Shown here piece by piece: positions 2,289 through 16,887 of a DNA stretch of 64,000 bases (position 1 is its first letter; each line of letters begins with the position of its first letter). Origin of the DNA: Sulfolobales archaeon (GTDB lineage Archaea > Thermoproteota > Thermoprotei_A > Sulfolobales > NBVN01); assembly GCA_026413885.1 (NCBI GenBank), contig JAOAKA010000001.1:46088-110087 (forward strand), read 5' to 3'. Under the pieces are notes generated by a model that did not search any database, had not been told where the DNA came from, and saw only the letters and a program-made list of their open reading frames with translations. The position numbers and the translations under genes were made by a program.

Positions 2289-2306
2289 ATTATATAACTA
2301 TATATT
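2289..2306 (+). promoter_or_regulatory. TATA-rich promoter region (ATTATATAACTATATATT)
   Basis: Two overlapping TATA-like boxes lie 24-33 nt upstream of ATG 2326. Confidence 0.3.
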
Positions 2307-2325
2307 GTTTCTGGACAACTTTAAC

Positions 2326-3576
2326 ATGGAGTTTAAATTGACTCGCTATAAAAGATATGTCTTACTACCCGACAGATTATTTGATGGTAAGGGGATTTTT
2401 CTAGATAAACCCGCAGTAGTTGTAGAAGGAAAGTACATAGTTGACGTCACTAGTAGAGGCTCTCTTGAAGTGGGGGAGCATTATTCTATTATAGAGTTAA
2501 AGGGTGTTACCTTACTGCCGGGCCTGATAGATGCTCATGTTCACTTCAGTGGTTTAAAGACTTACAACCCGGCGGAAGCCGTAGTCACTCCTTTAGAGCT
2601 TAGAGTTCTGAGAGCTGCTCAAGACTCTCAGAAAGCCCTATACTCGGGATTTACTACTGTGCGAGATTGTGGTGGGACTATCGCTCTATCCCTCAAGAGG
2701 GCTACAGCTGAGGGAACAATAGTAGGGTCACGTATTGTAGCTTCTGGAAGACCCATATGCCAGACTGGAGGGCACTGCGATATACATTACCTCCCACTAG
2801 AGGACGTCGCAAAGAGGGGCAATGCCCTACTATGCGATGGACCTTGGGAGTGTAGAAAAGCCGCTAGAATAGCGTTGAGAGATGGAGCAGACTTCATTAA
2901 GATCATGACATCTGGTGGCGTAGGGTCTGAGAAGGACGATCCCAAACACCCGCAGATGAGTATAGAAGAAGTTAAATCAGTTGTTGAAGAAGCTCACAGA
3001 GTAGGAAAGAAAGTTGCGTCACACGCTCAGGGATCTGAAGGTGTTAAAATAGCTATTCTCGGAGGTGTTGACTCTATAGAACATGGCTACTTCCTAGACG
3101 ATGAATCGATCGAGCTTCTTCTCAAGAAAGGAATATACTATGTACCGACTCTATGTCTTGTAGAAGTCTATAAGAAGATGATGGAGAATCCTCCTCCAGG
3201 AGTTCCTGAGTGGAGACTTAGAAAGCAGGAAGAGTGTATAGAGCACATGCCGAAGAGCTTTATAGCAGCATACAGAGCCGGTGTGAAAATAGCTACTGGT
3301 ACGGACTACTATGGACCCCCTATGAGAGCATTCGGACACCACGCTAACGAACCTATAACCATGGTGAAGTACGGAATGAATCCGGTAGACGCACTCATAG
3401 CGGCAACTAGTAATGCTGCTGAATGTCTAGGGTTAAGCTATGCTGGGTCTATAGAGAAGGGTAAAATAGCTGACTTAGTCGGAGTCATAGGTGACCCGGT
3501 AGCTGATATCAACAGTTTAAAGAATGTCGTATTTGTTATGAAGGAGGGAGTGACTATATCGAGAAAAGTTGACTGA
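2326..3576 (+). CDS. Metal-dependent amidohydrolase family protein (imidazolonepropionase/prolidase-like)
   Basis: Motif LLPGLIDAHVHF plus later H/D ligands (SHAQG, IEHG, GTD). I prefer ATG 2326 over the tracked TTG 2305 because of the TATA spacing. Confidence 0.8.
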   Translation: MEFKLTRYKRYVLLPDRLFDGKGIFLDKPAVVVEGKYIVDVTSRGSLEVGEHYSIIELKGVTLLPGLIDAHVHFSGLKTYNPAEAVVTPLELRVLRAAQDSQKALYSGFTTVRDCGGTIALSLKRATAEGTIVGSRIVASGRPICQTGGHCDIHYLPLEDVAKRGNALLCDGPWECRKAARIALRDGADFIKIMTSGGVGSEKDDPKHPQMSIEEVKSVVEEAHRVGKKVASHAQGSEGVKIAILGGVDSIEHGYFLDDESIELLLKKGIYYVPTLCLVEVYKKMMENPPPGVPEWRLRKQEECIEHMPKSFIAAYRAGVKIATGTDYYGPPMRAFGHHANEPITMVKYGMNPVDALIAATSNAAECLGLSYAGSIEKGKIADLVGVIGDPVADINSLKNVVFVMKEGVTISRKVD

Positions 3577-3934
3577 AATGCCGATAAAGAAGATTATAGC
3601 ACGCAGAGTGACTATTGAAGAAGGAGATTTAGTGCTAGATGGAAGCACTGAAGAAAGCAGGATTTCCTTGTCATCTATACGTAGATTCGGAGTTATGAAG
3701 AGATATAGTAGAGTATTGGTGGTTCTCACTATTGTTATAGCGGTTATCTCCATCTATACTCAAGACTTGTTTCATACGATTCTCACACTAGTAGCACTAG
3801 GGGTTACTCTAGCTACAAGAGAGGAAGTACTGGTTTTAGAGACTGCTAATGGAAGTATTTTAGAGATTAGTACTAGAGATAGAAAGTCTATCAAGAAAGC
3901 AGCTGAGGGTCTAAGCAAGTTACTTACTCACTAA
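3569..3934 (+). CDS. Hypothetical small membrane protein
   Basis: 121-aa ORF overlapping the amidohydrolase stop by 8 nt. It has one or two central hydrophobic helices (VLVVLTIVIAVISIY, ILTLVALGVTLA). Confidence 0.4.
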   Translation: MTEMPIKKIIARRVTIEEGDLVLDGSTEESRISLSSIRRFGVMKRYSRVLVVLTIVIAVISIYTQDLFHTILTLVALGVTLATREEVLVLETANGSILEISTRDRKSIKKAAEGLSKLLTH

Positions 3935-5069
3935 TAATTTCGACATTAGCTCTTGGAATCACTACTTCTCTTCCACTTTGTAAACGAACTTTAACAACTC
4001 TCACCGGAGATTCTGTCTCTATTTTATGTAGTTCTATAGGTAGTTCAGTAACTACACCTATTTCACCGAAGTATGGATATCTTATAATTCTAACAATACT
4101 GCCCGCCTTCATTTTACCCTCACCTAAAGACTCCGGTCTCGAGGTGGAGCCCTCCGTATCTAGTGGAATAATTACTTCAGGTCTTATTACACCAGCTCTA
4201 ACTTGTGTAGCTCCGTTGATTGCGGCTTCTCTACCCTCATTCTCCTCGAAGATCTCGAAAGCTCTTCTAGACATAGGAAGTCTTCCAAAACCTTCAGTGA
4301 GAACTATTGTAAATCCTATATTCTCCCTACCAGTAATAGCTACTCCTATTCTATAGCCTAAAATTCTCTCTAGGTCCGTTATTTTAGCACCTCCAACTAC
4401 AACGCCGGCAACACCTACTTTTCTAGCTTTCTCGAGTGCTTCATAGGTTATGAGAGACCCCCCAACGATTACTTTACCGGCGTGGTGCTCTCTTATATGT
4501 TCTAAATCTACGACATCTTGGTTGTTGGAGGAAACCATCTCTAGTACTCCGTGTTTTTCACCACCGAAGCCTATAATTCCTTGAATAAATGCTGCCGGTG
4601 TTCCTATAGCTACTGATTCTCCGTGAACGACTTTCAGAATTCTTCCTCTAACGTATGCCTTCAGCTCAATCTTACGTGGAGGACTTCTTATAGTTAAGTG
4701 GCCGGTAATTTCATTAAAACTCTCGACAGCGCCTTCAATAGGTGATTCAACAGACTTCTTAATGAGACCTAGAAGAGCTGAATAGCCGGCGAGTATAGTA
4801 CCCTTGGTAACTCTATCTCCTATCTTTACCTTGAGGTACCTAATTACTTCTTCAGGTTCTACCCCCAGAAGTTCCGCTACTTTAACTATATATGGAGGTC
4901 CCTCCAGAAAATATCTTCCAACTATTGTGTCGAAATCTACTTTCTCTCCCTGATCTACTAATATGTCTCCTTTGATAGGTAGAACTCTCTCACGTATAAC
5001 ATATGTGAGAGGGGTGACTGTTAGTCCAGGTGTGTACGCAAAGCTCTCCTCACTCATTTTAGCCACCAC
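3924..5069 (-). CDS. Hypothetical protein with lipoyl-like barrel-sandwich segments; last gene of the GlmL-like operon
   Basis: 381-aa ORF with an 11-nt overlap with the upstream gene. Segments IKGDILVDQGEKVDFDTIVGR and KIGDRVTKGTILAG resemble hybrid-barrel motifs. I recognise no catalytic motif. Confidence 0.6.
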   Translation of the reverse strand: MVAKMSEESFAYTPGLTVTPLTYVIRERVLPIKGDILVDQGEKVDFDTIVGRYFLEGPPYIVKVAELLGVEPEEVIRYLKVKIGDRVTKGTILAGYSALLGLIKKSVESPIEGAVESFNEITGHLTIRSPPRKIELKAYVRGRILKVVHGESVAIGTPAAFIQGIIGFGGEKHGVLEMVSSNNQDVVDLEHIREHHAGKVIVGGSLITYEALEKARKVGVAGVVVGGAKITDLERILGYRIGVAITGRENIGFTIVLTEGFGRLPMSRRAFEIFEENEGREAAINGATQVRAGVIRPEVIIPLDTEGSTSRPESLGEGKMKAGSIVRIIRYPYFGEIGVVTELPIELHKIETESPVRVVKVRLQSGREVVIPRANVEIISE

Positions 5070-6894
5070 CTACTCTATCGAGAAATTCTGCTGGGTATAG
5101 ATCTACGGCTTTAAACCACGAAGTCAACAACCTCTTTTTCTCTCTGTGGTCTTGTGGAATATAGAGAGGTCTACCTCTTCCATCTAATACTACACCGACA
5201 ACACCACCTTTAACTTTTTTTCTAACTCTCTTACCGAAGCCTAACCCGAAGTCAAATTTCTTGGTAGGTTGAATGAATACAACTACCTCCTTGTACTGAG
5301 GTATCTGAATACGTATTAGACTTCCGAAAGTTAGCTCTACATGCTCTCTCTCTTTCTCAGAATACTCTATAGTTACATCTGCTACTTTCTCACCGAGCGA
5401 GCCTATACCTGCCGCTGCTATGAGTGTGCCTAGAGGTATTAAACACTCTTTTTCAAATATTTCAAGAGCTATTTCTCTATGTATTTTAGAGAGTACTCCT
5501 AAGTGGGGTATCATGAACACACTATCCTGCATTATGTAGGTAAAGCCTATCGGCTGGAAAGCGTCTGTGAGTATAGTCATAGATTGAACTCTTCTAGGAG
5601 CTCTAGAGAGAAGACCTCCAGTACCTATAATATAGTCAACTCTCTTCATATCTATATAGGTTTCTTCAGCTTTTACTTCTTCAAATATATCTGAAATAGT
5701 TCTCTCCTTCTTAACTCCCTTGAGTTCTCTTGCTAAATACTTGTGGTGGTTGAAAGCCATTCTAATACTTTCTCTAGCTACAGCATGCTCGACAATAAGG
5801 TCTTCTAGAGACATAGGTATTGTTGTAGGTCTAATCATCTTATTGTAGATTATACCCATAATCTCGTCGTCGGTGAGGTCGAACGGGATCCATCTCTTGA
5901 TGTTCTCGAGAGTAGCCTCTCTCAATACGTTTCCGATGCTGTAACTCATCCCTAAGTTAGCACTCACAGTCCTCAAGAACCTTCCATCAAAGACGGAATA
6001 TACGTTTGTTGTAGCACCACCCATACCTACTCCAATTGCGTTTACTTCCTTCATCTCAGCAAAGGTCCTGATCATTAAGCCTTCAGCAGCCGGTGTCGGC
6101 ATTATATCTGTTGAAACTAGCTTCATCAGTTTTTCGTATCCAGGTGCGTGAGCCATCACATGCTCCATAAACAGCTCCAGTATAGCGTTTCTAGCTGATT
6201 CAACTTTCTCGACTTCTATCTGAGGTCTTATATTATCTACTATTCTTACATCGAAGAAGTCTTCAACTAGAATCTTCTTCACGTCGCTTCTAGCGTCTCT
6301 GTTTCCAGCATAGACTACTGGAAGTCTAAATGATGAACCAAATCTAGGTCTAGGTTTAGCTACAGCTATAACTTCACTCATTTCAAGTACGTGGGTTTTA
6401 TCGCCTCCATCTGTTCCTCCTGCGAGTAAAATCATGTCCGGTCTTAGAAATCTGAGTATATTAATCTTTTCGTGTACCTCTCTACCATCGTCAACCGATA
6501 GAACATCCATTACTATAGCTCCAGCACCTAGAGCAGCTCTTTGAGCACTCTCAGCTGTGATACTCTTAACTACCCCAGCTACAAGCATCTGAAGACCTCC
6601 ACCAGCACTACTCGTTGATACATAAACATCTATACCGACTTTCCCACCTAGATAGGGCATAATGAACTTCAATTCTTCTGTTGAGTCATCCAGTATGTCG
6701 TGTCCAGTGAGTTCCTCAACTTCTCTTACAGCATTTCTTACTCCCTTAGTAACGTCCTCAACTGGTTTTTCAACTGTTGTAGGTGCTTCACCACTAGCTA
6801 AGAACTTCCACTCACCATCTATCTTACCGAAGAAGCGAGCCTTAGTAGTAGTACTACCAACATCAGTCGCAAGGATAAACTTCGGTTCCCTCAT
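5059..6894 (-). CDS. GlmL/MutL-like ASKHA (actin-fold) ATPase with a C-terminal extension
   Basis: The N-terminal phosphate-1 motif ILATDVGSTTTKARFF and later GGTDGGD and IGTGGLL motifs are typical of the glutamate mutase component L family. It is 611 aa, longer than the classic roughly 460 aa. Confidence 0.55.
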   Translation of the reverse strand: MREPKFILATDVGSTTTKARFFGKIDGEWKFLASGEAPTTVEKPVEDVTKGVRNAVREVEELTGHDILDDSTEELKFIMPYLGGKVGIDVYVSTSSAGGGLQMLVAGVVKSITAESAQRAALGAGAIVMDVLSVDDGREVHEKINILRFLRPDMILLAGGTDGGDKTHVLEMSEVIAVAKPRPRFGSSFRLPVVYAGNRDARSDVKKILVEDFFDVRIVDNIRPQIEVEKVESARNAILELFMEHVMAHAPGYEKLMKLVSTDIMPTPAAEGLMIRTFAEMKEVNAIGVGMGGATTNVYSVFDGRFLRTVSANLGMSYSIGNVLREATLENIKRWIPFDLTDDEIMGIIYNKMIRPTTIPMSLEDLIVEHAVARESIRMAFNHHKYLARELKGVKKERTISDIFEEVKAEETYIDMKRVDYIIGTGGLLSRAPRRVQSMTILTDAFQPIGFTYIMQDSVFMIPHLGVLSKIHREIALEIFEKECLIPLGTLIAAAGIGSLGEKVADVTIEYSEKEREHVELTFGSLIRIQIPQYKEVVVFIQPTKKFDFGLGFGKRVRKKVKGGVVGVVLDGRGRPLYIPQDHREKKRLLTSWFKAVDLYPAEFLDRVGGG

Positions 6895-7003
6895 AATGGC
6901 TTACACCCACCACTCGTTAATACTGAAGTATGAGTTATATATTCATCAAATTGATATTAGGTGTTTATTCGCGTAATAGCTACATTGTGGTGATGCCGTA
7001 GGA

Positions 7004-7062
7004 GAAGTCAGTACTGCAGTGGTTCATCAGCTTCAGGCCGCCCGTCGTTCGCATCATCCCGC
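7004..7062 (-). ncRNA. Candidate C/D box sRNA
   Basis: Read on the minus strand: AUGAUGC (7057-7051), 14 nt, CUGA (7036-7033), AG, CUGAUGA (7030-7024), the 12-nt guide ACCACUGCAGUA, then CUGA (7011-7008). It is intergenic and on the same strand as the flanking genes. Confidence 0.4.
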
Positions 7063-7133
7063 ATGAAAAGATGTTGAAAACTAATATATTTACCTTCTCT
7101 AAAAACTAATTTTCTCCTGAAGATCTATCGGCT

Positions 7134-7394
7134 TTACTGACTATATTTCTCAATCTTACTTATTAGTTTCTCGATTTTTTCTGAGTCCTGAAGAACCATA
7201 AGGAAAAGCTCTCCGTGATTTCCAAGTAAGATTAAAAAAGGCTGTAAATATAGTCTCGCAAGCTGAGCCCACACTCGCCCCATGGGACCAAAAGAGTTGA
7301 GCAGAAAAATAGCTATTGTGTCCAATTTCGAATCGACTATCTTTTTCGCCAGTTTGTCTAGTAGTTCTTCTTCCTTACTTAGATTGCTTGACAT
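7134..7394 (-). CDS. Hypothetical 86-aa protein (operon member)
   Basis: The ORF starts 2 nt after the upstream gene stop. It has a charged N- and C-terminus around a hydrophobic core. Confidence 0.5.
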   Translation of the reverse strand: MSSNLSKEEELLDKLAKKIVDSKLDTIAIFLLNSFGPMGRVWAQLARLYLQPFLILLGNHGELFLMVLQDSEKIEKLISKIEKYSQ

Positions 7395-7396
7395 GG

Positions 7397-8125
7397 TTAC
7401 CTCTTTCTCAATATCCCTAAGATAATCGCAGCAGCAGTTAAGACTGCTGCTATAGCGGAAGCTAGAGCCTGCGGCTGTATATATATTAAATACACAGATA
7501 TTAGAAAGCCGACTCTAGTCATTATTGTGTTAGCAAATAGAGCTCCGAAGCCGACCATCATACCGTAAATGCCTATATAGTAAAGACCTCTGTAGACCAA
7601 ATACGTTAGCGAGGGTTTAACACCTTCAGCTTTCTTCGGGAATGTTGTGAAGATGAAGTAAGTTAGGCCTCCCAGAGTTATCAAAACTAGAATCCAGTTA
7701 TTAAGAGTTTTAACTGGGTCGGACCCCCAGAGAGGGACTATCGTAGCTGTAATCTGTCTAACTATGTTAGCTATAGGCACAGTTCTGAGAGCCAGTCCGG
7801 AGCCTACAGCAATATTTACAGCAACAGCATATCTAGCTAGCCAGTAATACTTCTTTGAATACTTAGTGAACATCAATACACCTAATATTGCTGGAATAAC
7901 ATAGTGCCACGAAGCAGACCAGAATGTGTGAGGACTTCTAACTGCTGGTGACACTAATACTCTGTTTAAGCTATCTAGAGCTAGTGCTATCGAATATCCA
8001 GCAGCGGTTCCAACAAACATATGTTCAGCTATCTTGTAGAACACGTTATCTCTATAGACAAAGCTATATATCCATACAACCATAGCAGCACAGAGCCACG
8101 CCCCAATTACATCCCAGCCTATCAC
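7397..8125 (-). CDS. Polytopic membrane protein, module B2
   Basis: 242 aa with about 6 predicted TM helices and a 4-nt overlap with the upstream gene. Its size and topology are similar to the 229-aa protein at 8975-9664. Confidence 0.7.
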   Translation of the reverse strand: MIGWDVIGAWLCAAMVVWIYSFVYRDNVFYKIAEHMFVGTAAGYSIALALDSLNRVLVSPAVRSPHTFWSASWHYVIPAILGVLMFTKYSKKYYWLARYAVAVNIAVGSGLALRTVPIANIVRQITATIVPLWGSDPVKTLNNWILVLITLGGLTYFIFTTFPKKAEGVKPSLTYLVYRGLYYIGIYGMMVGFGALFANTIMTRVGFLISVYLIYIQPQALASAIAAVLTAAAIILGILRKR

Positions 8126-8982
8126 TTCCCACCACCTCTTCTAGACGAGAGTCTCTTACCCCAGTAGAGAATGTTGCCGATGCCAATGAAGGCCACTATC
8201 AACATGTGAGATGTGCTCTGAGCATCCATAGACGCTATACCTAAGCCGAGCCTACCTACTAAAACCTCGTACTCCGCGGCACTTCTCTGTCCAACAAGCA
8301 TTCCAACAGCTTGCTTAGCACCAACAAACGGCTCTATAGATGGAGCTATAACGCTTAGAGCAGCAAATAGAAGAGGTACATTATATGGTGTGTGCCACTG
8401 CCTCACGTAGTAAGCAAATACATCTGTGCCAGAGGATGCTATGACGACTAAGTTGAAGTCTGTGGCTTTATCTACCTCCTTCATTAGCGGGAGGTCCTCT
8501 AATCTATTACCGAAGTTATCTACACTGATAGTTCCCTTGATGCTTCTCGCCAGAGAAGCTGCAGCAGCTTCACCACCAGCGATGTAGCCTAGGTAAACGT
8601 AGTCTCTACCATACACTTTATCTTCGAATAGGTCTGACGCCATAGACCTAAATAGAGAGAATGCTATAACTCCAAAAGCACTGAGAGATCCGTAGACTAT
8701 TTTACAGTTCTTATCGAATAGGTGTTTAGTTAGTGCTATGAGATTTGGTTCTAGTTCCCCTCTTGCCGCAACTTCGTAGTATACCTCTATATAGACATGA
8801 CACTCTTGACGCAGGTTTGTCTCTATGTAGCTATATACATCTCTAGTTCTTTTAGAAACCTCTATCGGTATTCCTAGAGGATGTATAATTGGTAAGATAA
8901 CTGAGAGTAGTAGTAGTGTATACAGGAGTTCTCTAGACCCAAGAATTTTCTCTATGTAGCTTACCCCACTCATACTACTCAC
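8122..8982 (-). CDS. Membrane-anchored protein with a soluble core, module A2
   Basis: 286 aa with an N-terminal TM, a roughly 200-aa soluble region and a C-terminal TM. It has an 8-nt overlap with the upstream gene. Segments align with the 298-aa protein at 9669-10565. Confidence 0.7.
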   Translation of the reverse strand: MSSMSGVSYIEKILGSRELLYTLLLLSVILPIIHPLGIPIEVSKRTRDVYSYIETNLRQECHVYIEVYYEVAARGELEPNLIALTKHLFDKNCKIVYGSLSAFGVIAFSLFRSMASDLFEDKVYGRDYVYLGYIAGGEAAAASLARSIKGTISVDNFGNRLEDLPLMKEVDKATDFNLVVIASSGTDVFAYYVRQWHTPYNVPLLFAALSVIAPSIEPFVGAKQAVGMLVGQRSAAEYEVLVGRLGLGIASMDAQSTSHMLIVAFIGIGNILYWGKRLSSRRGGGK

Positions 8983-9664
8983 GCCTCCCCATCCAGCTCG
9001 TCTCTCTCCATGTCAACAATCTCAGACCTAGTACTACAGTACCTAGTCCAGCACCTATAGTGATCGGTCTGAAAGCAGCTGTATTGGGAACAGTCATAAT
9101 CCAGTCTCTTAGAGGTAGAAAGCCGGGCCACACTACCCCGCCGATAGTAGTGTTTCCAAAGACCACTATCAGTGCTGTAACGAGGAGGAGTAACGCCATT
9201 GGATTTCTTACTCTAAAGGCTCTATATGAAGCAGATGCTATATAGAACACTAAGATAGAATATACTGCGGCATCTGCTGGTGCATAGAGGTTTAGATATA
9301 GCCATCTAAATTGAGGTTGTGTAGTTATAGCAATTCCAGCTGCTGGGTTACTGTAGCTGATATACCAGCCGATTAAAGCAAAGATAACCATAGTTACAAG
9401 CAATCCTATCGAAACTAAGCTAAAGGGCGCCTGCTTTAGACCTTCTTTTCTCACTTTTGTTAAGTGAAATCTTAGTATGTCGATGCCTCCAACAATAAGA
9501 GCGAAGCTCGTGATTATTACCGCCCAATCACTTAAAGCTTTATCAGCAGTACTAAATGCTCCAGCGACATCCCTATTGATGTAGAGATAGTAAAATGCTA
9601 TTGATAGTAGTATTATGATTGTCACAATAATCTGGGGAGTATATCTTCTAGCGACTAAACTCAT
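8975..9664 (-). CDS. Polytopic membrane protein, module B1
   Basis: 229 aa with about 5-6 TM helices. There is a 4-nt gap to the upstream gene. Confidence 0.7.
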   Translation of the reverse strand: MSLVARRYTPQIIVTIIILLSIAFYYLYINRDVAGAFSTADKALSDWAVIITSFALIVGGIDILRFHLTKVRKEGLKQAPFSLVSIGLLVTMVIFALIGWYISYSNPAAGIAITTQPQFRWLYLNLYAPADAAVYSILVFYIASASYRAFRVRNPMALLLLVTALIVVFGNTTIGGVVWPGFLPLRDWIMTVPNTAAFRPITIGAGLGTVVLGLRLLTWRETSWMGRRE

Positions 9665-9668
9665 AACC

Positions 9669-10565
9669 TCACCCTACTTTCCAGACCCAGTTGAGAATGT
9701 CTACAAACGTAAAGCCTTTGAGACCGGGTAAGAGTAATGCTAATATCCCCATAATTATTAATACTATCGCTAGAAACTTCCCGACATCCTGACCTCTTAT
9801 TGAAGCTAGAGTCTCCTTATCACCTGAAGCTAGAGCTCCTGCGGCAAATATTTCCTCACCTATGAAGGAGTAGTCAGCTACTAAAACGAAGAACGGAATT
9901 TGAGTCTCCCTAGCTGTTCCAGCTATCTGAAAAGCATTAACCATGTTACCAGCTTCCATAAATATGAGAGATTCCGCGTAGAAAGGACCTACAACGATAT
10001 TAGCTCCTACATTTTCTCTAAATATAGTTGCTTGAACAGCTGATGCGTAAGCAAACTGCTGGTCTGTTAGATATCTCACATTGTATGTTGTGTCGTAGAG
10101 CTCGGGTCTACCAGCTGAGTAGTAACCTTCTCTAACTATCTCCTCTGCTGTAGCTATAGCTTCCGGCACACCGAGAGTAGTGATTAGCTTAGCACCGTAT
10201 TTACCACATAATCTTGCGATATGTGATAATACACCTAGTCCAGCTATAAATTGAGGCGCCATTGCTGATGAAATTGTTCCAAAACCAAAAGTCATATGGA
10301 CTGGTCTACCCATTTCAACAGACCTAGCTACAGCTTCCTCGATAGCGTCAAATGCGCGTATCTTTCTCACTGGAAATAATTTACCACCTCTAGCCTCCAT
10401 CATGAAGATATAGCCTGCTGCTAATAGGACCACTAACATTATGAATGCCGAAAAAGGAGCTCTCGTGGTGTAGAGCTGAACGCGGAGAAACCAGCTCACA
10501 GCAGATACTACACCTATAGCCAGCAAGATAAGTGAAACTATTAATACGCTTCGGAAAGTCTTCAA
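9669..10565 (-). CDS. Membrane-anchored protein with a soluble core, module A1 (first gene of the operon)
   Basis: 298 aa with two N-terminal TM helices, a soluble core and a C-terminal TM (FLAIVLIIMGILALLL). An AT-rich promoter region lies upstream. Confidence 0.7.
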   Translation of the reverse strand: MKTFRSVLIVSLILLAIGVVSAVSWFLRVQLYTTRAPFSAFIMLVVLLAAGYIFMMEARGGKLFPVRKIRAFDAIEEAVARSVEMGRPVHMTFGFGTISSAMAPQFIAGLGVLSHIARLCGKYGAKLITTLGVPEAIATAEEIVREGYYSAGRPELYDTTYNVRYLTDQQFAYASAVQATIFRENVGANIVVGPFYAESLIFMEAGNMVNAFQIAGTARETQIPFFVLVADYSFIGEEIFAAGALASGDKETLASIRGQDVGKFLAIVLIIMGILALLLPGLKGFTFVDILNWVWKVG

Positions 10566-10755
10566 TTACTACACCTCAACATTAGAATAGAGGTATAGAT
10601 TAAAAAAGCTTAAAGTAACTAGTACGACTTAAACTCGATAATGTAACTTACTTCTATAAATTAAAATTTCAAAGATTAATAAAAAGGATATTAAAGTAAG
10701 CTCAAGTCACATAAAACGGAAGACGCTACTGACAGTATAAAACTGAAACACTAGT

Positions 10756-15252: not shown

Positions 15253-15433
15253 CTCTCTAGATTCTTACCTAAAGACCTTATACACCGACCTCAAGATGTA
15301 GCTAGCTTCATTAATCTACAGTGAATTAAGTCTTATATCCACTATTTAAAATCTTCCGACTTCAATGTCATCTATCTCAGACTGAAGGAATCAGATATAG
15401 CTTATAGAAGTTGGATAGAAGCTAGCTACACTA

Positions 15434-15510
<77 letters not shown>

Positions 15511-15561
15511 TACCTAACACATTTATCACTAGATTTAAGCTTTAACTATTGGAGACTCTGT

Positions 15562-16086
15562 GTGTCTATAAAGATAGTCTACAGAGCCTTAAGGCGGAAG
15601 GAGTCTAAGCAGCTAATTGAGAGTATCTGCAGTCTCTACCCTAAGATCTGTGTTGGTATTAGAGCTAGTTCTGCGGAGACTGTCTATGAAGCAGTATTTG
15701 ATGGTGAAGTAATTTACGTAGTAAACGGTATTCCAGTAGTTTTTAAATCTGAGAACCAGCTTACTCCAACACTTATATCAGCTAGAGTAGCTGGTTTTGA
15801 AGCACTTCACTACGCAGTAGTAGATGAAGGTGCTGTTAGACCTATACTTAGTGGAGCAGATGTCATGGCTCCCGGAATTCGTAGAGTTAGTGAGTTTTCA
15901 ATAGGTGATATTGTGGTGATCTGGTCAACAGATGAGAAAACTCCTCTAGCAATCACCAGAGCTTTAATGACTTACAGTGAGATTACCTCAATTCGTAGAG
16001 GGAGAGCTCTAAAGAATCTGCACTACGCTGGTGACGATATATGGAAGGTATCTCTCGAAATACTGAAGAAATTTGAGAGATTGTGA
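15562..16086 (+). CDS. PUA domain-containing RNA-binding protein
   Basis: The C-terminal half (VVDEGAVRPILSGADVMAPGI...GDIVVI) fits a PUA domain. The tracked N-terminus is antisense to tRNA-Ala, so I place the start at GTG 15562. The exact start is uncertain. Confidence 0.6.
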   Translation: MSIKIVYRALRRKESKQLIESICSLYPKICVGIRASSAETVYEAVFDGEVIYVVNGIPVVFKSENQLTPTLISARVAGFEALHYAVVDEGAVRPILSGADVMAPGIRRVSEFSIGDIVVIWSTDEKTPLAITRALMTYSEITSIRRGRALKNLHYAGDDIWKVSLEILKKFERL

Positions 16087-16788: not shown

Positions 16789-16887
16789 TGCGGGGGGTGG
16801 GATTTGAACCCACGCAGGCCTACGCCATCGGGGTTCCCACATGAGGTCCTGAGCCCGACCCCTTCGACCTAGCTCGGGCACCCCCGC
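16789..16887 (-). tRNA. tRNA-Leu (anticodon CAG) with an intron of about 14 nt at 37/38; no encoded CCA
   Basis: The reverse complement starts GCGGGGGTGCCCGAGCTAGGTCGAAGGGG. The anticodon arm is TCGGG-CTCAGG[ACCTCATGTGGGAA]C-CCCGA, followed by the long variable arm GGCGTAGGCCTGC, the T-arm GTGGGTTCAAATCCCAC and the acceptor CCCCCGC-A. Confidence 0.8.

Follow-up and report, generated by a model that had tools for sequence, protein, structure and literature searches.

A conserved four-gene membrane cassette and a facultatively linked ASKHA ATPase module in a Sulfolobales archaeon and in diverse bacteria and archaea

GlmL-type proteins, which belong with MutL and Or-4 in Pfam family PF13941, accompany B12-dependent mutases and are encoded next to the mutase subunits (glmS/glmE or equivalents). 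Importers of the ATP-binding cassette (ABC) and energy-coupling factor (ECF) types combine two polytopic subunits and a variable outward domain with a conserved cytoplasmic ATPase module. Here, we describe a gene cluster that recalls both and belongs to neither, found on a 64,000-nucleotide stretch of the genome of a Sulfolobales archaeon (assembly GCA_026413885.1, contig JAOAKA010000001.1, positions 46,088 to 110,087), which is referred to over its full length as the window. Its seven minus-strand genes encode, in order of transcription, the membrane proteins A1, B1, A2 and B2, the small protein S, the ATPase M and the protein K. Public sources name the proteins only "hypothetical" or "DUF6754 domain-containing", and full-text literature searches by family accession and family name yielded no account of the system.

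We tentatively read the cluster as a modular membrane machine in which A1-B1-A2-B2 form one unit and S-M-K an ATPase module that acts on A1, with solute uptake as the most likely activity, a reading that is quite possible though short of probable. A preliminary description, made from the sequence of the window, had proposed an ATP-dependent, membrane-associated machine with no assigned function, encoded by a single operon with a tandemly duplicated membrane module and a GlmL-type ATPase. The linkage of the genes and their absence from known families were supported by closer analysis; the duplication, the single operon, an obligate ATPase and the GlmL type were not. The cluster is made of three conserved modules, the A1-B1-A2-B2 cassette, S and the M-K pair, and is probably not one duplicated operon.

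Distribution, gene order and linkage of the modules

A1 marks the cassette, as it belongs to Pfam family DUF6754 (PF20539; 232.3 bits against a threshold of 27, E 6.7e-69, profile positions 9-246 of 257). When the DUF6754 alignment was scanned against species-representative genomes, the matches listed included at least 562 species-level genomes, spread over many bacterial phyla (Zixibacteria, Ignavibacteria, WOR-3, Cloacimonadota, Gemmatimonadota, Planctomycetota, Armatimonadota, Eisenbacteria and Bacillota) and several archaeal lineages (Bathyarchaeia, Korarchaeia-type and Desulfurococcaceae-type). Desulfurococcales-type archaea and an Asgard lineage are also among the carriers. An exhaustive profile search gave 2,621 DUF6754 clusters at 50% identity. 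The genes of 85 fetched loci were labelled with iterated hidden Markov models seeded by the window proteins, with no open reading frame (ORF) claimed by two profiles. A1, B1, A2 and B2 were found in 118, 115, 113 and 113 copies, respectively, and always in that order; B1 directly follows A1 in 104 copies and B2 follows A2 in 109, with median junctions of 13 nt (A1-B1), 4 nt (B1-A2) and 1 nt (A2-B2). Furthermore, 19 loci carry two or three tandem paralogous cassettes, often alongside one S-M-K set.

S, M and K are rarer than the cassette genes in the same loci (23, 26 and 27 copies), and K always lies directly after M (median gap 3 nt, n=27). Counting within 10 kb on either side of each hit, M or K is found in 28 of 86 cassette-centred loci. 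The reciprocal set, 22 metagenome loci centred on K and flanked on each side by 7 kb or more, includes M in 18 cases and the cassette in 9, with M-K but no cassette in 9 and K alone in 4; all three distant archaeal K homologs stand in exactly the seven-gene order of the window. Because two genes of a megabase genome would lie within 10 kb of each other by chance in roughly 1% of cases, the linkage is real but facultative. The co-occurrence of the GlmL-like ATPase and the membrane genes extends across distant bacteria and archaea, as the original proposal of a joint machine required, and a strict dependence of the cassette on the ATPase is not supported: 58 of 86 cassette loci have no M-K within 10 kb. 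In many bacteria the arrangement is S-M-K-A1-B1-A2-B2; archaea have A1-B1-A2-B2-S-M-K or divergently oriented modules. The K-to-A1 junction measures 30 nt or less in 7 of 15 cases. S occurs next to cassettes without M-K as well as next to M-K without a cassette, and is therefore a candidate adaptor. Copies of K alone have unrelated housekeeping genes as neighbours (RF-1/PrmC, AccA, Era and two-component systems). On four metagenome contigs (L115, L151, L167 and L131) K homologs of about 45-48% identity have neither M nor a cassette within 7-10 kb.

The components differ in the degree to which they are conserved. Identity between the window proteins and their bacterial orthologs falls from 51% for M, 43% for K and 42% for A1 to 34% for B1, 31% for B2, 29% for A2 and 28% for S, and between paralogous cassettes of one array it is 58% for A1, 45% for B2, 43% for B1 and 38% for A2, the most divergent component of the cassette. 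The cytoplasmic parts are thus the constrained "engine", and A2, which faces outward, varies most, as a specificity element would.

None of the seven proteins falls in a characterised transporter family or in any family with an assigned function, in keeping with the preliminary description. Searches of Pfam and NCBIfam with all seven window proteins matched A1 to DUF6754 and M to MutL, and the other five to nothing; profile searches of the PDB with all seven families found no solved homolog except for one domain of K, and PADLOC returned no defence-system match for the seven proteins. There is no ABC_tran or permease-family match among them, and ABC genes are sporadic in the flanks and no more frequent near (4/150) than far (5/150). 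Likewise, B1, B2, A1 and A2 have no match to Rnf or Nqr proteins in Pfam or the PDB, and the resemblance of K to them does not go beyond the barrel-sandwich clan.

Predicted anatomy of the proteins

A1 has two N-terminal transmembrane helices, a highly conserved Rossmann-like domain (residues ~60-250) and a long C-terminal transmembrane helix. The AlphaFold2 (AF2) model places a Rossmann-like alpha/beta domain between the helices (mean predicted local distance difference test, pLDDT, 87; predicted TM-score, pTM, 0.78), and Foldseek searches of the PDB with this model returned generic Rossmann folds only (E >=8e-3, TM-score ~0.3). Invariant residues are R67, R81, E84, Q170, E198, Q213, T217, Q222, D231, E238 and D260, with no invariant His among them. 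In 67 of 118 bacterial A1 copies, the transmembrane helix comes after a signal-peptide-like start and an FN3-like domain, and Lys and Arg cluster just after the helix (K+R 0.7 before and 3.7 after, by the positive-inside rule), so the DUF6754 domain is predicted to be cytoplasmic. Of the 150 best DUF6754 representatives, 102 are extended at the N-terminus, by 60 to more than 700 aa, and 14 continue beyond the last transmembrane helix at the C-terminus. One type of N-terminal extension is a BamB/PQQ-like beta-propeller, others resemble FN3 arrays, and C-terminal WDFGDG stretches in some A1 proteins are what we take to be PKD-like domains; the positions of the FN3, propeller and PKD-like modules around the transmembrane helices agree with the predicted topology. 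The archaeal and Bacillota A1 proteins, that of the window included, have no ectodomain. Examples of the extension types are P0293, P0294 and P0279 for the beta-propeller, P0305 and P0343 for FN3 arrays, and P0302, P0315 and P0354 for C-terminal PKD-like or coiled-coil parts. DUF6754 proteins of 800-1,000 aa had been considered as fusions with B1, A2 or B2; this was ruled out, the extra length being ectodomains.

The remaining cassette proteins and S are nameless. B1 has six transmembrane helices with both termini predicted inside and an invariant S144-A145-x2-R148-x-F150 motif in a cytoplasmic loop, with no match in Pfam, NCBIfam or the PDB. The charges of A2 (2.3/1.1 and 0.9/3.9 by the positive-inside rule) predict cytoplasmic termini and a domain of ~220 aa that faces outward, and neither a Pfam family in 49 family members nor a PDB match was found. 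B2 has invariant E34, Q124, F157/F159, G194 and R204, and S a hydrophobic P-A-I-x-F-L-E-S-x-x-P-L core in its family alignment; neither has a Pfam or PDB match.

The preliminary description had derived A1-B1 and A2-B2 from a tandem duplication. The two pairs do share an architecture, as transmembrane helices enclose a soluble domain of ~200-220 aa in A1 and A2 and a polytopic protein follows each. The soluble domains are predicted, by the positive-inside rule, to lie on opposite faces of the membrane. BLASTP found no similarity between A1 and A2 or between B1 and B2, and the stretches that had seemed alignable reflect the composition of transmembrane helices. Profile-profile comparison of A1 and A2 with hhalign gave a probability of 17% and E 0.0014 for family alignments, and E 0.0021 and a probability of 13.5% for full families, collinear over 201 columns and the best among ten pairs, yet not significant; cross-pair controls gave E 0.028-0.92. 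B1 and B2 were at control level (E 0.041), with no relationship seen. On this comparison, A1 and A2 have a common architecture and perhaps a remote common origin, and the duplication of the whole pair is not borne out.

The ASKHA phosphate-1 motif earlier seen in M belongs to a full-length MutL domain (PF13941; E 4.4e-118, 395.3 bits against a threshold of 27, positions 1-450 of 450). More than 100 positions are invariant in 25 sequences, including all ASKHA nucleotide-binding motifs (DxGSTTTK, LLxGGxDGG, GGATT and GxGGxLSxAP), and a conserved C-terminal extension of ~125 aa carries GGxxGxxxDxRGRP. The assignment of M to the GlmL type is not supported: M scores far below the equivalog cut-offs for GlmL (NF040745; 222.2 against 475 bits) and Or-4 (216.2 against 600), and below that for the TIGR01319 subfamily (154.6 against 204), and it has the extra C-terminal domain. 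No ORF of the window has the B12 signature (DxHxxG...SxL...GG), and no neighbouring gene encodes a mutase. The 90 copies of M examined in 79 loci likewise lack an adjacent B12 mutase, the single match to the signature there being a shadow ORF; M is thus not encoded beside mutase subunits. Pfam also gives a weak Hydantoinase_A match for M, and profile searches found no sequence homolog of M in the PDB.

K has, from the N-terminus on, a beta-rich barrel-sandwich-hybrid region (residues 14-175) and an alpha/beta domain (196-298); a disordered linker then leads to a C-terminal KOW domain (320-377), as judged from an AF2 model with a pLDDT of 85. The lipoyl-like hybrid-barrel segments of the preliminary description are real at the family level, as 19-20 of 26 members match RnfC_N or biotinyl/lipoyl-type barrel-sandwich domains (RnfC_N 20/26, Biotin_lipoyl 19/26, NQRA_N 11/26), with KOW matched in 8/26. 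No His, Cys or Lys is invariant in K, and the position of the carrier hairpin has no conserved Lys, which sets K apart from biotinyl and lipoyl carriers. The alpha/beta domain has the invariant motifs AITGxE, TEGFG and GATQxRAGxxRPE. Foldseek searches of the PDB with the K model matched only KOW and NusG structures, and the profile of the K family matches SPT5 KOW domains (E 3.8e-4). In two Bacillota loci (L013, 5915-20474, and L051, 4704-10899), three paralogous M-K pairs surround a single cassette, and the N-terminal barrel-sandwich region is rearranged in the paralogous K proteins.

Transcription units, the C/D-box sRNA gene and neighbouring genes

All seven minus-strand ORFs of the preliminary description recur in the ORF list at the same positions (Table 1), and four of its junctions are unchanged: a 4-nt gap between A1 and B1 (9669/9664), overlaps of 8 nt between B1 and A2 (8982/8975) and 4 nt between A2 and B2 (8125/8122), and a 2-nt gap between B2 and S (7397/7394). 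The supposed 11-nt overlap of M and K (5069/5059) becomes a gap of 1 nt upon correction of the start of K. GTG 5069 is most likely wrong and ATG 5057 the start, because the family N-terminus reads M-x-x-AYTPGL, a database entry has 377 aa and the junction reads GGTGGTGGC-TAA-A-ATG; this ATG lies one base past the M stop codon TAA, with GGTGGTGG just ahead.

Table 1. Features of the cluster, in order of transcription
Feature	Coordinates	Strand	Product	Description
Putative promoter and leader of A1-B1-A2-B2-S	10566..10640	-		putative, read from sequence; AT-rich TATA-like stretch at 10598-10615
A1	9669..10565	-	298 aa	DUF6754 protein; TTG start; Shine-Dalgarno-like GAGGTG ahead, at 10572-10577
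B1	8975..9664	-	229 aa	polytopic membrane protein, six transmembrane helices
A2	8122..8982	-	286 aa	transmembrane helix, soluble domain of ~220 aa, transmembrane helix
B2	7397..8125	-	242 aa	polytopic membrane protein, 5-6 transmembrane helices
S	7134..7394	-	86 aa	small conserved protein
C/D-box sRNA gene	7006..7061	-		independent gene embedded in the S-M gap, outside the protein system
sRNA boxes	C 7051-7058; D' 7033-7036; C' 7023-7029; D 7008-7011	-		
M	5059..6894	-	611 aa	ASKHA-fold ATPase, MutL/GlmL superfamily
K	3924..5057	-	377 aa	ATG 5057 preferred; longest ORF from GTG 5069

The one break in the cluster, of 239 nt between S and M (6895-7133), was said to hold an element like a C/D small RNA (sRNA), and a genuine archaeal C/D-box sRNA gene is found there, conserved in two relatives. 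It reads C box ATGATGC, guide GAACGACGGGCGGC, D' box CTGA, C' box CTGATGA, guide ACCACTGCAGTA and D box CTGA, with guides of ~12 nt and a TATA-like box, AATATTAG, upstream at 7081-7091. Copies in L090 (~8030-8085) and L089 (5474-5516), which with the window make three loci, diverge in their flanks but share without change the four boxes, the D' guide ACGACGGGCGGC and the upstream AATATTAG; in L089, the sRNA lies just upstream of an M-K pair with no cassette nearby. The Rfam sR3 model scores 17.5 bits, below its gathering score of 41. The reverse complement of the D' guide includes CCGCCCGUC, which we take to be the universal 16S rRNA 1399-1407 segment, so that by the N+5 rule the candidate target is presumably the equivalent of C1402 (E. 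coli numbering). The window itself has no rRNA gene.

A single seven-gene operon is not upheld, as the conserved sRNA gene with its own promoter splits the cluster and the M-K part varies in the closest relatives: L008 has it inverted, L007 lacks it in the flank and L089 has it with no cassette. Furthermore, a TATA-like box (6934-6944) and a Shine-Dalgarno-like GGTGGGTG (6904-6911) precede M. Because of the sRNA with its own promoter, the promoter-like element ahead of M, and the inversion or absence of M-K in relatives, the window is read as three units, A1-B1-A2-B2-S, the sRNA gene and M-K, the last probably a separate transcription unit.

The genes that surround the system were tallied by de novo clustering and bulk Pfam assignment of 300 near-flank and 150 far proteins, and no further gene is strictly linked to it. 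Amidohydrolases are the most recurrent neighbours (9/300 near versus at most 1/150 far). For instance, an Amidohydro_1 gene (window 2305-3576, plus strand, E 1.3e-51) is transcribed towards the 3' end of K, and others are found in L004, L005, L014 and L088. Other recurrent neighbours are S-Me-THD/DUF917 proteins, Asp/Glu/hydantoin racemases, the glycine-cleavage P protein, pyridoxal-phosphate enzymes and peptidases of families M20, M24, M19 and S9. In Bathyarchaeia-type loci the neighbours are Hyu-like, with hydantoin-type racemases, amidohydrolases, an M20 carbamoylase-like protein and S-Me-THD. The context points loosely, and with little statistical weight, to catabolism of amino acids, peptides or cyclic amides.

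Three further features of the window were seen in passing. A 121-aa ORF at 3569-3934 (plus strand), with a weak, sub-threshold DUF6232 match (E 6.8e-4), overlaps the 3' end of K on the opposite strand by 11 nt. The longest ORF of a PUA-domain protein (15433-16086, plus strand) overlaps at its 5' end an opposite-strand tRNA gene (15437-15510, minus strand), and the N-terminal residues (MVDRPGFEPGTSRM...) resemble a shadow of the tRNA, the true start being probably further downstream. Finally, a tRNA match at 16789-16887 (minus strand; 46 bits) is 99 nt long, which exceeds the standard tRNA length and suggests an intron-containing archaeal tRNA.

A possible membrane machine and its likeness to known systems

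The model by which we infer complex formation, docking, energy coupling, the direction of transport and the class of substrate runs as follows. A1, B1, A2 and B2 would form a hetero-oligomeric core complex, in which B1, with six transmembrane helices, and B2 may provide the membrane pathway, and A2 would expose its variable alpha/beta domain of ~220 aa outside as the likely ligand or specificity subunit. A1 would hold the very conserved Rossmann-like domain at the cytoplasmic face and, in many bacteria, FN3, beta-propeller or PKD-like modules outside. The small adaptor S, the ASKHA ATPase M and the barrel-sandwich, alpha/beta and KOW protein K would together make up a module in the cytoplasm; by docking on the A1 domain it would link ATP hydrolysis to the membrane complex, and one such set could serve several tandem cassettes. 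The activity would be uptake of a small nitrogen-containing solute, for instance an amino-acid derivative, a peptide or a cyclic amide. A gradient from a conserved engine to variable outer and membrane parts is typical of transporters and counts in favour of this model. In its favour are also the fixed order of the four cassette genes, their wide spread and tandem arrays, the linkage to S-M-K in different phyla, the predicted topology, the presence of S beside either module, the complete ATP-binding motifs of M and the recurrent catabolic neighbours. Several observations weigh against it. No component resembles a known transporter in Pfam, NCBIfam, PDB profile or Foldseek searches, so the case for transport is an architectural one, and we know of no ASKHA ATPase that energises a transporter. 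Most cassette loci (58/86) have no M-K within 10 kb, and M-K without a cassette (9/22) and K alone (4/22) are found among the K loci; because the modules so often occur apart, their coupling is either optional or in some cases not local. Bacillota loci with three M-K pairs per cassette show that the ratio is not fixed. Ectodomains such as the FN3, beta-propeller and PKD modules of A1 are found more typically in surface or envelope proteins than in solute importers, and the enrichment in the neighbourhood is weak and heterogeneous.

The separate occurrence of the modules would also be expected if they were metabolic partners only, an explanation that we hold to be unlikely but by no means far-fetched: the cassette would be a self-sufficient ion-coupled secondary transporter, and M-K, with S, a separate ATP-dependent enzyme acting on the imported compound in the manner of hydantoinases or oxoprolinases, which open cyclic amides. 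Cassettes are usually without nearby M-K, M-K occurs without the cassette and K alone, and M-K pairs and cassettes vary in number independently of each other; such an enzyme would also fit the weak Hydantoinase_A match of M, the Hyu-like neighbours in Bathyarchaeia-type loci and the promoter-like element that M-K has to itself behind the sRNA gene, and Pfam places MutL close to the hydantoinase branch. Set against this are the lack of a HyuB-like partner and of invariant His, Cys or Lys in K for a catalytic or carrier role, the bridging of both modules by S, K-to-A1 junctions that often overlap or measure 10 nt or less, and the cytoplasmic domain of A1, which is conserved like M and K, as for an interaction partner. 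The ectodomains suggest another possibility, a machine of the envelope or surface, exporter or mechanotransducer, that by analogy with FtsEX, MacB and LolCDE would send cytoplasmic ATP-driven changes to ectodomains acting on a polymer, lipid or protein. The extensions of DUF6754 representatives, the outward-facing A2 and the housekeeping surroundings of K-only copies agree with it; yet archaeal and Bacillota A1 proteins do without ectodomains, no recurrent envelope-biogenesis genes lie nearby and the archaeal loci have catabolic contexts, and we judge this explanation quite unlikely.

Two further proposals start from family resemblance. If K were related to RnfC/NqrA, the six-helix B proteins to RnfA/E or NqrD/E and the A proteins to RnfG/NqrC, the system would be a cofactor-less relative of Rnf or Nqr; the RnfC_N and NQRA_N matches of K members and the loosely similar sizes and topologies of the subunits recommend this, but the likeness of K is at clan level, the four membrane proteins match no Rnf or Nqr family or structure, conserved Cys and flavin-attachment motifs are missing, and neither complex has a role for an ASKHA ATPase, which makes the idea very improbable. 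That M would be a GlmL-type reactivase or chaperone of a corrinoid enzyme, and the cassette a corrinoid transporter, is largely refuted and of the slightest probability: membership of M in the MutL/GlmL Pfam family, the company that GlmL-type proteins keep and the Rossmann-like domain of A1, a fold also seen in B12-binding domains, speak for it, but the window has no B12 signature, the 79 loci gave only the shadow ORF, M stays below the GlmL and Or-4 cut-offs, A1 has no invariant His and no mutase was found in the contexts examined.

The existence and architecture of the system are well supported, and we rate it as a new kind of system, as it lies outside every known transporter, secretion, defence and bioenergetic family tested. 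An appreciable, if minor, chance attaches to the larger proposition that it forms a new class among primary active transporters or trans-membrane mechanotransducers, one driven by an ASKHA ATPase rather than by an ABC, P-type or rotary one, in which a single S-M-K engine docks on the DUF6754 domain of interchangeable four-subunit cassettes, and that it is ancient and common to bacteria and archaea. If the machine model is true, a membrane system of hundreds of bacterial and archaeal lineages is entirely unstudied, the pairing of an ASKHA ATPase with a membrane complex would be a new principle of energy coupling, the MutL/GlmL family would gain a role outside B12 enzymology, and DUF6754 and four nameless families would acquire a context. 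The tandem arrays in uncultured anaerobes suggest a major function in nutrient acquisition or the envelope that current metabolic reconstructions miss.

Each likeness to a described system is partial. M shares with GlmL/MutL and Or-4 the full-length MutL domain and the ASKHA ATP-binding motifs, and differs from GlmL and Or-4 in its sub-cut-off scores, its additional C-terminal domain, its invariable succession by K and its frequent position beside membrane genes, never beside a mutase. K resembles RnfC/NqrA and biotinyl/lipoyl carriers in its N-terminal region, which matches RnfC_N, Biotin_lipoyl and NQRA_N in most members; unlike them, it has no conserved modifiable Lys and no NADH, FMN or Fe-S module, and its alpha/beta and KOW part has no counterpart there. 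The C-terminal 55-60 residues of K superpose on KOW5 of SPT5 (TM-score 0.8, root-mean-square deviation 1.3 A), a likeness to NusG/Spt5 at the domain level only, as there is neither an NGN domain nor a transcription context. FtsEX, MacB and LolCDE are analogous in combining an ATPase in the cytoplasm with membrane subunits and sizeable domains outside the cytoplasm, with no detected relationship in sequence or fold and a different class of ATPase. To ABC and ECF importers the analogy is functional only: there is no ABC ATPase, Walker-type nucleotide-binding domain or detectable subunit homology, the ATPase has the ASKHA fold and its linkage is facultative. Like these importers, however, the system pairs two polytopic subunits and a variable outward domain with a conserved cytoplasmic ATPase module, one ATPase module can serve several membrane sets, and the engine is conserved where the outer parts vary.

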